64,000 nt of DNA from Escherichia coli (GTDB lineage: Bacteria > Pseudomonadota > Gammaproteobacteria > Enterobacterales > Enterobacteriaceae), in assembly GCF_003334335.1 (NCBI RefSeq), contig NZ_QOWQ01000001.1; one strand, written 5' to 3'. Positions 12,001 through 18,000 of the stretch are shown piece after piece (positions within the stretch are counted from its first letter, which is position 1; every line of letters begins with the position of its first letter). A program made the position numbers.

Positions 12001-15000
12001 CTATATTTGAACTTTGAGATAAATTATTGATACCGATTGGATTAGTCATAAAGCTCCCTTTTTTAATTGTCCAGGCCAATGGTCTTTACATCATACTTTT
12101 AACTCTAGAGCATTTTAAATATCTTGCAATAAGGTGAATATCTTAGATATTTTTATCTCTGTTGTTTAAATAACAAGTTGCATACATCTAAATAATAAAA
12201 TTGCGTCAATAAAAATTTATCGCATACAAATTCTCGTCAGCTGCTTTAATTTCAAAATGTTGTCAATTATAACTCGATGGCTTTCACTCTCAGTTTCTTT
12301 ATAGTAGAGTTTAATGTTGTTTTTGAGCGGGTTAGGCACATACATATCTACACATTCTTTTATCACAACTGCTTTTCGTCTTCTGGGTTCGAGTTGTAGT
12401 GATTTGTCTATACAAATCCTTGCCTCTTCAATTTTTTCATTATGAAAGTGGACTAGTGCCCTATAGTAGTAGAGAGAGGCTATATCAGTTGAGTGTATCT
12501 TAGCCTGTTCAAATAAGATATGAGATACTTTTGCTTGTCCAGACAGACCAGTTATCAGTCCCATAATAGCTAAAATTTTTCCATCGACAGTGGTTATGTC
12601 TGATACATAATCTAAAAGCTCTAATGCTTTTTGAGCAGCAAGTTCAAGTTCACTTTTTCCATGAAGTGCCAAAGACATATGGCATTCCGCTAGAAGGCAA
12701 TAACATTCTGTTTTTAGCGTCTGTATATCACTTTTATTTTGTAATCTATCAAATATAGTCATGGCCCTGTAAATGCTTTCAGGGGTGAAGTCGTAAAGTT
12801 CTTTCTTTCCGGCTAACATTTCATCTGATAAATAATGATTCTTATATCCTTGGTCCTGCTTAGCTAATCTTACAGATCGTTCTGGTTTATGTACCGTTTG
12901 AAGGATATTATCTATAATAAATTGTGATGTATTATGTAGTTCATCAACAGGGAGATGATTACTGGCGATGAGGAAAAGGTTTTTAGCGTCGATCAACTCA
13001 ATGTATAAAGTGTTCACTGCATTATTCTGGTTTATTCTTCCTGTAACGAAATAATCTGGCTTGAATCTGCTCAAGAATGAATTTTGAGATATGTGATCAT
13101 TACAAAAATTTGTCGCAGCCATCGGATAGGTATAGAGACCATCGATTTTTTTATTTGAAATGATTTGCACTAATTCCTGATTAAGTATTAATGGATCCAG
13201 TGTATTCAATGAAGTAGTGAAAGGGAATATAGCTATGGAATAGTCTGAAGTATTATCTTCATTAATTTTAGTTTTGAAAACCTGCCCGCTGAAACGATAA
13301 CCTTTCCGGTAGATTGTTTCTATGCAACGATCATAGCCAATTTTTTCAAAAATGCAGCGCAAAGAATAGATACATCTTGTCAGGGACTCGTCACTAACAA
13401 TAATATTTTTCCATACTGATTCGATGATCATATCTTTCAGTACAACATGACCAGCGGATTCAAGTAATACTATTAATACACCTAACTCTTTCTGTGGAAT
13501 ATAAACTTGCTCATTTCCTTGAGTAAGAATTCCATCTTCCGTGAGCGTTAATCCCTCAAGAAAATGATATGAGAATTTATTTTCTAAGTCCATTAGTTAA
13601 CCTCTATGAAAAAATTGGTTTCTTGCATCCTGCTTAAGCAATAGAAATTATGGCTATTCATATTTATGTGTCATTAACGCTACAGGAAATTACATTTGAC
13701 ATATCTATGGTTGTGTTCACTAATTTATCTTAGGAATTCAGTGATGTAATCTGAAATAGCCTTATTCAATTTTGATAAAGTAGATTGTTCTCTAACGCAT
13801 TGAAAAATAATGATTTATAGTATGCTCTTAACTGTTTTAAGATGCTGATTTAAGAAAACATAAGAGGTGCTGGTTATAGTGGTTAACTGCACTATAACCA
13901 GCAAATTTAACCAAATGATTGTAATGCTTAGCCATTATCTTCTGAATTATCGTTTAAGAGTTCAATATATGCCTGCGCTTTACTCTTAACACTATCATCC
14001 TCACAATTGTTAATAATGTGATAGAAACATTGCATTGCGTTATCGATATTTTTAGCCCCAATCTGACATTGACCCATACGATAAATAACTGAATAGTCAT
14101 CATACGGGAAGTAATTGTAACTTAGTTTGTAAAGGTCATATGCTTGTTGATATTTCTTTTTGGGCTGACATACTGATGCAAAATCTTTTAGATACTCATG
14201 ATTTTCGAACGCATAAATGCACAAGAATTTATAATAAATTTCTGCGTCCGTTATATTACCCTTTTCATGGTAGTCGAATGCATATGCATATATTCTATCA
14301 AGGATATCAGGAGTTAAACCATGTAGTAATGCCAGATTTTCTCCTTTCGATAATGCGTGTTTTAGTTGATTTGCCCATTCATCACTATTATTGAATATTT
14401 CAATTGTTTCTGTGCTCATAATATTCCTCTGTGATGTGTCTCGTGATGCCAAATTATTATTGATTGACTCATTGATATTTTTATATTTATCTTTTTTAAA
14501 TTATGAGTTTTAAGCTTGCATTGCTTATGGTATATTTTTCATTATTGGTAAAAGTACTGTTCACTACAAACTAATAACATCATTAGTTGTTTTACTAATA
14601 TTCACCTTATTAGTTATCTTAATTACGACATTACATAAATGCCTTAATGTGTATGACCTGGATTCATAGTATCAATTGCCATTTTTTCAATGAAAATTAA
14701 AAAGGGGATTTTTGAGAAGGGTAGAATGTCGTTTGTTTTTTTCTTTATTATGTCTGGTGACGCGGGGGGATAGAACGTCTGTGCATATAGTAGTGAATTT
14801 ATTCAGGTCTACATTATTCTCTATTTTGGTCAGTTTTATGAGTTCATTTACAGCCATACTCATTAAATCATCTGTTATCGAAAATTTATATATGCTCATA
14901 GCAGATAATATTGCTTGCTGAATTATCTCTTCAGAAATATCCGCTATCTTTATTGACAAATCATGTGTTAGATATTTTCCTCCAAGAGATTCTTGTTCAA

Positions 15001-18000
15001 TATAATTTAAACCAGACCCCATTGTGATTTTAACTGGATTAACGGATTTCTCTTCATTTTTCTTATTTTTGTTCTCCTGATCAGGAACTAATGGTTGCAG
15101 TGGTAGGCTATTATTAATATTTCGTGGCTTCATTTTACATTTCTCTCATTTGATTAGAGCAAAATCCGAATTCGCAGCTTCTGATAATGTCAAATATCAC
15201 CTTATGGAGACGTTACGTAGAATGACTATATTTGTTATCGGCACATTAGGGGTATTAATTTTAGTATTGATGGAAGGTGATTATTGAACAGTAACATCGA
15301 GTCACGGTAAAAATGTGAGGTATACAATGGACATTGAATTTTCGCAGATTCATGAAATGGTCTATATGCATGATATTGTAAATTCGGACTCGAAAAAGAA
15401 ACCAAGGATTCCGTTAAAAAAATTCCTTAATGCTGAGAATGTTCTCACGCAAACAACATCATGGACATTAAATTCAAGATATGTGAATGTTAATTCTGTC
15501 AATAAAGTCAACGTAAAGAGTAAAGTTAAAAACAGTTATATCTCACGATCTGTCAATGATGAGTTTAGTTTAACAGATGATGAAATCAATTCTTTTAAAG
15601 AAACGTTAGTCCTTTCCTCTATTGATTCACTGAGTAAACTGGTTCTTAATAATCCTCTTTCTGTATTGTTTACATCGACTGTACGAAGGAATAATAATCG
15701 AGCTAAGATGAATGTCGAGTTCGACTCATGGATTTGCACCAGATGTTGTTGATACATGATATTTTACATTGCAAGGAGATGTCTAAAATGAAAGATGTTG
15801 ATCAAATCTTTGATGCTTTAGACTGCCATATACTGCGAGAATATTTAATTTTATTGTTTTATGATTAACGAGGTTCCATCTTTTTGTTATCTATTTTAGT
15901 TTACCTTGCACAATGCATTATTGCTCTGTTACCAATGCTCAAAATAAAAGCATGCTTACCTTGCTTTAGTATATTATAGCTTACACTTTTTTCTGGAAAG
16001 ACATAAAAATCAGGAATAAGTTGTGCAAGTCTATCATCATCAACTTGATCCATAATCTCAAACTTATTAACTTTCTTTGATGTTAAATGGGCTGTGTCAT
16101 AGTTTTCAATCCATGTGTATTCAATATTTCGCCGTATTGATTTACTTTCTCTGTTACCTTGTTGCCAGGTTCCACTCAACGCAACAGTTCCTGTTTTATT
16201 TTTTTTGTTATACATAAAGTCGATGGTAAGATTTGCTCGTCCCTGGTCATTAAAAATTACCCAATTTGCAGTGCATGTTTCGTTATATATCATTTTTTCT
16301 GCAGTGTAAGAATAGACAGTGAAGAGAATAAACCCACTGATAAAAACTAAAATAAATAATAAGTTTTTTTTATAATCAATCACGATTAACCTCACGGTAA
16401 GACAGGGTTAAACAGTTTGCCACTTCATGTTGGTTATAGTTTTTATTGCATGCCATAACAATCATCCCCGGTGAGGATTTTGCAAGAGGGAAGTATAACC
16501 ACGGATGTTTTTTACAGTTAATCCCCGAATCCAGTATCCGTGTTTTATATTTATCGAACTCTTTCAACCCATCAATTGTATCTTCTGTTACATTAAAATG
16601 GCAGCCATTAATTTCCGCAACAGTCTTGTAATCCTTGAAAAATGGCTTCGGTTGATTATTATTCCATAGCCAATATGCAGAATATGCGCCTATGACAAAT
16701 GCGCTCAACATAATTAGATGACTTTTTATATTTTTGAGGATTTTGTTATTGAAATTCTTTGCGCCACCAATGCTCTCTTTGTATCCCGCATTAACTTTTA
16801 TGGCAGGTGGGGCATTGTGTGTATGTGCGTCTGTTGACGAGTTTATTACATGATTTTGTATGTTAATGTCATTATGGATCTTGAATCCTCTTCTCGGCAC
16901 GGTTGCAATTAGCGAGTGGGTAGTATCACCAACAGCGCGAAATCCGCGTCTGATAATGGATATGTTCTGATATAACGTGTTAGTAGGCACACGCATACCT
17001 TCTTCTTCCCAGACTCTGGTGAAAAAATCTTGTTGTGCAACCACATCAGGAAAAGCTTCAAGTAGAAGTGATAAACATCGACTGGCTGGCGTTGTCAGAA
17101 CGACGTTAAGATCGGCGTTATGTACCGATATTAATTTTCGGTGCTCAGGCCAGAACTCGATATTATCGTTAATAATCCAGTACATACGTCAATAAACACT
17201 AAATCAATCGAAATGGAGATCACATAGTTTGCTAAGTATATTGGTATTTACGGCATAAATATATATTAATTTTATATTTATCATGATGATTGAAATGAGG
17301 CTTTAATGTTGCAACGTAAAACTTTACGTAAATTAACATGGTTAACATTTATGCCACTATTGTTTGTAAATTCATATTTCGTAATGCTTCTGAATTTTTC
17401 GTGTGATGGTTTTAAATACTATGGTGTTTACTCTTGAGGGGACGGCCTATTTATAAAATACGGACATTTCAATAAATGCCCGTATAAACAGAGTATGATT
17501 CTGGCTGGTCGTTGAGTATCAATGTTGGACCGAATGTGAACGAATAAATAATTCGTTTATTTTACCACCCATTCTCTTTTCGATTCGTTGCTTGTACGCG
17601 TAGATGCTACGGATATCCATATCCAGAACTTCAGCAATCTGATATGGATTATAACCAGAAACCATATACCCCATTATGGTGAATTCCATCTGAGTTAATG
17701 TGTTACCTCTGGTAAATGATAAATAACGACCAATAAATAGTTGTCTGATCTTTTCATTGGCAACATCAAGACCATCATCATTATATATGACAGCAGATAT
17801 TGCTGAGTTGTGTTTTCGCCAGTAATTAGCTAACGATTGCATATTGCGGTCGCTGACTAAAACAATCCCCATGTCAGTACTTGCAAGATAGTCAATCCAG
17901 TCTTTTTCAAGGAATAGACGTAAAAAACTTACTGAAAAATCGACAAAAATATATCCGCTTAATCTCGCATTGTGGTTTTTTGTTAAGATACCTTCTACCA

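Follow-up and report, generated by a model that had tools for sequence, protein, structure and literature searches.

An intact ygeG chaperone gene, probably orphaned, in the decayed ETT2 island of K-12-type Escherichia coli

We analyzed a 64,000-nucleotide stretch of the Escherichia coli contig NZ_QOWQ01000001.1 (hereafter the window), and in particular the gene pair ygeF–ygeG at positions 13928–15133, which belongs to the island of the second type III secretion system (ETT2) of E. coli. ETT2 genes in the window comprise epaO–S, etrA, eprH–K, orgA/B, ygeK, pbl, ygeI, ygeH, ygeG, ygeF and yqeK–H, and the G+C content falls to 31–36% across ∼2–18 kb. Positions 1–22000 are 100% identical to the chromosome of P13-6 (E. 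coli O141:H4), and the stretch carrying ygeF–ygeG (13600–15400) is 100% identical to K-12 derivatives. Of the 5426 complete E. coli genomes on which all genome counts given here are based, 3598 contain this region. Thus, the ygeF–ygeG–ygeH arrangement is not peculiar to this window.

Two minus-strand open reading frames (ORFs) were confirmed, at 13928–14452 (TTG start) and 14687–15133. The former is ygeG, and its start is likely the annotated ATG at 14419, with GAGG 8 nt upstream, rather than the TTG at 14452. So delimited (13928–14419, minus strand), ygeG encodes a 163-aa paralogue within the IpgC/SicA family of class II tetratricopeptide repeat (TPR) chaperones. YgeG matched the PDB structures of IpgC (E = 3.2e-30), PcrH (1.1e-7), SycD (1.6e-4) and AcrH (3.6e-3), and contains two Pfam TPR_3 repeats, at residues 40–73 (E = 2e-11) and 74–107 (E = 5e-11). 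Both its size and its all-TPR make-up are those of class II chaperones (∼150–170 aa, TPR_3-type repeats). The best NCBIfam model was SicA, at 119.2 bits (under the cut-off of 184), and the score on TIGR02552 was 73.8 bits (under the cut-off of 104.8). These data bear out the assignment of a SicA/LcrH-type chaperone to the gene at 13928–14419. A word-based search for YgeG homologues returned Escherichia sequences only.

Because ygeF, ygeG and ygeH all lie on the minus strand, the order of transcription is ygeF, ygeG, ygeH, ygeI, pbl. An initial annotation of the same DNA had ygeG downstream of ygeH and followed by ygeF; both statements must be reversed, as ygeF precedes ygeG and ygeG lies upstream of ygeH. 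It was right that a HilA-like regulator sits beside the chaperone gene: the product of ygeH (12217–13593, minus strand) scored 1084.7 bits on the NCBIfam YgeH model, against a curated cut-off of 800. At 25 nt past the ygeG stop codon lies a terminator-like hairpin (stem of 14 bp; 13868–13903, minus strand), which divides ygeF–ygeG from ygeH and is for the most part preserved in O157 and TUM1586. A sigma-70-like promoter match precedes ygeH (13647–13674, minus strand; 10/12, a consensus match only), and no minus-strand promoter match lies between ygeF and ygeG. Given the hairpin after ygeG, the promoter-like site before ygeH and the lack of a match between the two upstream genes, ygeF–ygeG looks like a two-gene unit of its own.

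The first gene of this unit is a pseudogene (14644–15133, minus strand). Alignment with O157 and TUM1586, in which YgeF has 163 aa, revealed a 2-bp deletion near 14735; the resulting frameshift alters the final ∼30 residues. In a strain identical to the window over 13600–15400, RefSeq labels ygeF as frameshifted. The earlier description of ygeF as an uncharacterised ORF needs amending, as the gene is not intact here. YgeF matched no NCBIfam family, and no PDB relative was found even at an E value of 10. Among 1.84 billion representative proteins, relatives of YgeF came from Escherichia only, apart from one spurious match to a repeat protein. On these comparisons, YgeF is an orphan protein confined to Escherichia.

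A second lesion lies upstream of ygeF. Relative to O157 and TUM1586, 236 bp have been lost from the window between ygeF and yqeK. A 9-bp direct repeat, AAGGTGATA, borders the lost segment on either side, and the scar of the deletion between the two repeats lies at 15195–15204 (minus strand). Sequence comparison identified an element, TAAAAATGAGCGAWTTTTGATA, common to the deleted segment and the region upstream of eicA, a chaperone gene at another locus described below. In intact alleles, ygeF–ygeG is preceded by a box of ∼21 bp, AAAATGAGCGAWTTTTGATAG. In the window, the 236-bp deletion has removed this box (at ∼15204), and no match with up to three mismatches was found anywhere in the window (a shuffled window is expected to give 0.00 matches). 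A –10-like GATATT (15198 to 15193, minus strand) was spared. The 236-bp segment is present in 1102 genomes; compared with the 3598 that contain ygeG, this means that ∼70% of ygeG-bearing genomes have the box-less allele. The ygeG region of NZ_CP062838.1 (968708–970744) is 99.8% identical to the window and nevertheless retains the segment, so the deletion is either recent in this allele lineage or has been exchanged by recombination.

Where else does the box occur? In a 40-kb locus holding an intact island (L008, strain GN03551) it is present once, ∼100 bp before the ygeF ATG (27964–27985, minus strand), and no match was seen in ∼95 kb of other E. coli DNA (loci L001, L006 and L007). By comparison, 100 kb from enteroaggregative E. 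coli (EAEC) 042 contained six matches with up to three mismatches, all intergenic. Five of the six point to an annotated downstream gene, the targets being eicA, eilA, a gene for a 478-aa hypothetical protein, a ShET2/EspL2-family effector gene and a pentapeptide-repeat gene. Overall, the box lies 47–200 bp upstream of, and faces, eicA, eilA, the ShET2/EspL2-family gene, pentapeptide (PipB2-like) genes, a leucine-rich repeat (LRR) gene and others. Sites were mapped in locus L005 at 12154–12175 and 17425–17446 (plus strand) and at 43581–43602 (minus strand), in the tnaA–yieH region of EAEC 042 (L004) at 35512–35533 (minus strand) and 47628–47649 (plus strand), and in L009 at 9732–9748. E. albertii has no ygeF; its box, 253 bp before ygeG, is conserved perfectly, although the rest of the spacer does not align and synonymous sites are saturated between E. 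coli and E. albertii. Over 14 sites, ATGAGCG...TTT.ATA is invariant. In 9 of these 14, a TAnnnT hexamer follows GATA by 19–22 nt, a frequency reached in none of 2000 shuffles. For ygeF in E. coli and ygeG in E. albertii, GATATT occupies this –10 spacing.

We also scanned species-representative genomes. Among the matches listed were four E. albertii sites, contigs of E. coli type from a 'Collinsella' metagenome-assembled genome (MAG) and one K-12 site; most of those listed are chance matches in AT-rich genomes (e.g. Campylobacter MAGs), and the scan is informative about contexts, not distribution. The K-12 site is in the K-12-type strain PG20180053, by fliE and yedL (L132 2703–2723), where the box core lies ∼63 bp before a frameshifted LRR pseudogene (EspR3/yedN-like, DUF5503). 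Relics of the putative regulon thus survive where little of ETT2 is left. In Providencia alcalifaciens PAL-1, a variant, AAAAATGAGCGTTTTTTTATAG, occurs 151 nt before a gene for a 311-aa protein with no NCBIfam match (L049 5546–5564, minus strand), and this site may represent the same class of promoter in a different genus. In the MAG, 'Collinsella sp.' Map_57_008, six contigs (L070–L075) bear eip and effector loci of E. coli (among them eicA, eilA and a ShET2-like gene), so that Escherichia DNA has evidently contaminated this bin.

The tnaA–yieH region of EAEC 042 contains a cluster of type III secretion system (T3SS) effector genes in backbone islands near oriC (L004 33284–35449, 44993–47401, 47710–48897 and 49367–50000). 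These encode a ShET2/EspL2-family protein, EspY4, a pentapeptide-repeat protein and a 'type III effector protein', and two of the four have the box.

To what type of promoter element does the box belong? The published MxiE box, GTATCGTTTTTTTAnAG, is located 33 bp before the start of the transcript, and nine of its positions are strictly conserved (PMC3299695, PMC9769918). Seven of these nine are shared by the Escherichia box, including G6, T10, T12 and A16, mutation of any of which nearly abolishes MxiE-box activity, and its distance to the –10 element is similar (PMC3299695). In related loci this spacing is ∼20 nt, and the box is sited, as MxiE-type boxes are, before translocator, chaperone and effector genes. 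A box of this type, with CG, a T-run and A.AG and overlapping the –35 region, is present in intact alleles and absent from the window. When the MxiE box itself, GTATCGTTTTTTTANAG, was searched for with up to three mismatches, neither the window nor the O157 and eip loci gave a meaningful match; a four-mismatch match upstream of ygeF, picked by eye, was discarded as chance. We also considered that the box might be a HilA-type site for YgeH or EilA. This is less likely, since no copy precedes the apparatus operons of the island (eivF, eprH), and the genes that it does precede are those of translocators, chaperones and effectors.

The box core is also found upstream of sycB–yspBCD of Yersinia enterocolitica (ATGAGCGAAACTTGATAT) and of a Ysa-like chaperone–translocator operon in a Salmonella assembly. 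The promoter of the sycB operon is reportedly activated by YsaE together with SycB, a finding attributed to Walker and Miller in 2004. The YsaE/SycB loop is summarised in PMC4236580. EivF of the intact island in L008 scored 184.8 bits on the InvF model, under the cut-off of 259. As EivF is InvF-like and the box is both MxiE-like and placed before sycB, EivF is the putative activator. From these similarities, we infer that EivF, together with a free class II chaperone, recognises this box, and that the corresponding regulon includes ygeF–ygeG. In the literature searched, nothing relevant was retrieved for three fragments of the box sequence or for an EivF box, and a chromatin immunoprecipitation sequencing study of InvF offered no usable motif for comparison.

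The gene downstream of one such box, eicA, encodes the closest point of comparison for YgeG in E. coli. EicA and eip sequences were taken from the EAEC 042 record, in which eicA is part of the locus eicA–eipBCD–eilA–eaeX. EicA belongs to the same family and shares 46% identity with YgeG over 148 residues. A neighbour-joining tree joins the YgeG and EicA clades as sisters within the SicA/SycB/IpgC group, and E. albertii has orthologues of both (YgeG, 65% identity; EicA, 71%). EicA outscored YgeG on the SicA model (151.7 versus 119.2 bits) and on the IpgC structure (139.9 versus 108.4 bits), was also higher on PcrH and SycD, and, unlike YgeG (73.8 bits), passed the TIGR02552 cut-off (114.8 versus 104.8 bits). 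Their settings differ as well: eicA is directly upstream of translocator genes, whereas ygeG lies beside ygeH and is translocator-less in all strains examined. Judged by these scores and the tree, YgeG is the old, more diverged member of two ancient chaperone paralogues, not the equivalent of SicA. A third class II chaperone-like protein of E. coli (P0198, 159 aa, encoded on a 597-kb contig) is 54% identical to EicA and 45–47% to YgeG, which hints at a further Inv/Mxi-Spa-type locus in some strains.

Comparison with better-known systems places YgeG similarly. Its TPR class II chaperone fold and sequence are those of SicA, which partners InvF in Salmonella pathogenicity island 1, and IpgC, which partners MxiE in Shigella. 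Intact ETT2 also has an InvF-like protein, EivF, and a box that is MxiE-like in sequence and –10 spacing. But SicA and IpgC, each the sole class II chaperone in its system, are co-transcribed with their translocators, whereas ETT2 has two paralogues, with YgeG the one apart from translocators. In the window, moreover, the partner gene eivF and the box are both deleted. SycB, whose gene has the box core upstream, is 41–45% identical to YgeG alleles and 52–53% to EicA; yspBCD translocator genes follow sycB, while none follow ygeG.

No translocator gene is present in the window, as first annotated. EipB, EipC and EipD gave no tblastn match in all 64 kb, and the RefSeq annotation of a strain identical over 13600–15400 includes no translocon gene. 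Nor is YgeG encoded beside translocators in the intact E. coli island or in E. albertii ETT2. This agrees with published accounts, in which ETT2 lacks SipBCD homologues and YgeG is listed as a SicA-like chaperone (PMC3977695). The species does have translocator genes elsewhere: the eip locus, between nlpA/yicS and nepI, contains eipB, eipC, eipD and the dedicated class II chaperone gene eicA (PMC11068852, PMC7058095). This locus is present in 746 genomes, against 3598 for the ygeG region, and in P13-6 there is no eip insert at the canonical site, where nepI, yicS and nlpA are adjacent. The earlier suggestion that the clients of YgeG are encoded elsewhere is therefore correct for the species, as already published, but unsupported for this strain.

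The remainder of the island is decayed too. ETT2 in the window is the published isoform with an ∼8.7-kb deletion (PMC11068852). In the intact island of L008, eivF, eivG, eivE, eivA, eivC, eivI and eivJ lie between a glycoside hydrolase gene and epaO; in the window, the glycoside hydrolase gene almost abuts an eivJ remnant and epaO. Comparison of window ORFs with the intact island put the junction at 1596–1727 (plus strand). The deletion took eivF, eivG, eivE, eivA, eivC, eivI and most of eivJ, including the genes for the InvF-like regulator, the secretin, the export gate and the ATPase. EivF, EivG, EivE, EivA and EivC gave no tblastn match in the window. With no secretin, export gate or ATPase encoded there, nothing could be secreted even if YgeG had clients.

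YgeG itself shows signs of both constraint and decay. Between E. coli and E. albertii, the proportion of synonymous differences in ygeG (pS) is 0.82, which is saturated, and that of nonsynonymous differences (pN) is 0.19, the lowest among neighbouring genes; YgeG has thus been under long-term purifying selection. Most family-invariant TPR residues are kept in the window. An exception is residue 79, where the K-12-type allele has aspartate (G79D; codon at 14183–14185, minus strand). Glycine at this position is invariant in YgeG of O157, TUM1586 and E. albertii, and also in EicA, SycB, the Salmonella homologue and IpgC, and its replacement may be destabilising. The family alignment revealed a second substitution in this allele, S86P (codon at 14162–14164, minus strand). 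Frameshifted alleles (154 and 140 aa) derived from the window/K-12 allele occur in other strains.

Box deletion, ygeF frameshift, loss of eivF and of the secretin, export-gate and ATPase genes, an empty eip site in P13-6 and G79D are together read most economically as making ygeG a leftover ORF here. Our preferred reading, which we hold with a probability of about 0.65, is that 13928–15133 in the window is a decayed, K-12-type ygeF–ygeG, in which ygeG is an intact but orphaned ORF, most likely a relic and not a working regulator. Two published observations on expression are relevant: YgeH raises ygeG transcription in EAEC 042 (PMC4210603), and the yqeG–ygeH region of K-12 is a domain silenced by H-NS and StpA (PMC12460168). 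In intact systems, ygeF–ygeG would be driven by an activator-dependent promoter containing the box AAAATGAGCGAWTTTTGATAG, with transcription ending at the hairpin before ygeH. The box would be of the type used by the AraC-type activators InvF, YsaE and MxiE, which act with a free class II chaperone. EivF would be the DNA-binding partner of YgeG, YgeG most likely a second chaperone or co-activator in a feedback loop from secretion to expression, and YgeF probably a small secreted substrate or client. In the window, this circuit is dismantled, leaving ygeG orphaned within an H-NS-silenced island. The idea, put forward in the initial annotation, that YgeG has a purely regulatory role thus gains indirect support for intact systems from the InvF/YsaE/MxiE-type box at ygeF–ygeG. 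It does not carry over to the window, since with box and eivF both deleted, nothing there points to a retained co-activator role.

Several observations weigh against this reading. Overproduction of SlyA in K-12 lifts ygeG expression 2.7-fold (PMC5797941), so transcription of ygeG is possible in the absence of the box. That ygeF and ygeG are co-transcribed over their 225-bp spacer is something we infer. EivF plus YgeG of O157, tested as homologues of MxiE and IpgC, gave no activation of icaR or icaT (PMC9241512), although the MxiE boxes of these two promoters differ in sequence from the Escherichia box. The absence of eip was established at the canonical site of a proxy genome, P13-6, only. The ygeG ORF is still full-length in most of the 3598 genomes with the region, and its ratio of nonsynonymous to synonymous change (dN/dS) within E. 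coli is below 1 (0.17–0.33, from few substitutions and sites), so some constraint may persist. Finally, in avian pathogenic E. coli (APEC) with a degenerate ETT2, deletion of ygeG reportedly altered adherence and invasion and lowered espE3 transcription in early growth (PMC10463865, PMC11068852). The last three findings could mean that YgeG keeps a T3SS-independent regulatory role in degenerate-ETT2 strains, acting on genes outside the island with a partner other than EivF, and it fits as well that K-12 has kept the box before at least one remnant of a target gene, the yedN-like LRR pseudogene. We consider such a role unlikely. The only known regulatory mode of the family needs an AraC-type partner like InvF or MxiE, and none is encoded in the window; the box of ygeG's own operon is deleted, G79D hits an invariant TPR glycine, and H-NS/StpA silencing covers the region in K-12. 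The APEC effects, for their part, were modest, limited by growth phase and not seen when the whole of ETT2 was deleted (PMC10463865).

A different proposal would make YgeG the dedicated chaperone of YgeF, the two forming a secreted substrate–chaperone module rather than YgeG serving translocators or acting as co-activator. That YgeF is a secreted substrate is plausible from the position of its gene behind the box, which it shares with effector and translocator genes, directly upstream in the ygeG unit; and EicA is already placed to serve EipB and EipC. In the AlphaFold model of YgeF, ∼60 residues at the N terminus are disordered and helices come after them, a typical pattern for small T3SS substrates, but the model is unreliable (mean pLDDT, a per-residue confidence score, of 40.5). 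Against this, E. albertii does without YgeF while retaining ygeG and the box, so YgeG has a role independent of YgeF. YgeF also lacks the P/VxLxxP chaperone-binding motif, unlike EipB (PMLAPP at residues 62–67), has no homologues outside Escherichia, and is encoded by a pseudogene in the window. For these reasons a dedicated YgeF chaperone seems improbable. More doubtful by far is that YgeG serves translocators encoded elsewhere in the genome of this strain. Strains with intact ETT2 do have unlinked translocators at the eip locus (PMC7058095), and some genomes, e.g. FXCREC043, have both ygeG and eip; but eip is much rarer than ygeG, its site is empty in P13-6, the locus brings its own, more canonical chaperone, and the window has no secretin, export gate or ATPase with which to secrete anything.

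What may be new here is limited. The earliest ETT2 papers already described a translocator-less ETT2 with a SicA-like ygeG in a decaying island; only the promoter box common to these genes, and the regulon implied by it, may be novel. The wider proposition is that the box defines an undescribed ETT2 regulon of Escherichia under the joint control of EivF and a class II chaperone, with YgeF as a secreted substrate, YgeG as feedback co-activator, and the operon disconnected in K-12-type lineages by the 236-bp deletion. We regard the case for and against it as evenly balanced. Such a regulon would include ygeF–ygeG, eicA–eipBCD, eilA and about ten effector-like genes, with fossil copies even in K-12; the effector-like members would be EspX/PipB2-like pentapeptide proteins, a ShET2/EspL2-like protein, EspR-like LRR proteins and several unknowns. 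A box common to a translocator operon and many effector-like genes provides a testable handle on ETT2 substrates and regulation. And the fact that the K-12-type allele has specifically lost it should temper functional claims drawn from ygeG deletions in degenerate-ETT2 strains.

Other signs of decay are scattered over the island. At the ∼8.7-kb deletion junction, the glycoside hydrolase family 15 gene is split into ORFs at 63–779 and 825–1595, and no insertion sequence (IS) is called there in an annotated relative, strain 300709. Among window ORFs, a frameshift splits epaS and an internal stop interrupts ygeK, and orgA and pbl are flagged as frameshifted in a close annotated relative (the decay sites of these four genes are at 4377–5497, 9209–9724, 10595–11227 and 11272–11748). 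Strain 300709 matches the window across ygeG, but has an IS1A between orgB and ygeK (L001 12051–12748) that is missing from the window. Other close relatives have IS2 or IS3 insertions within the island.

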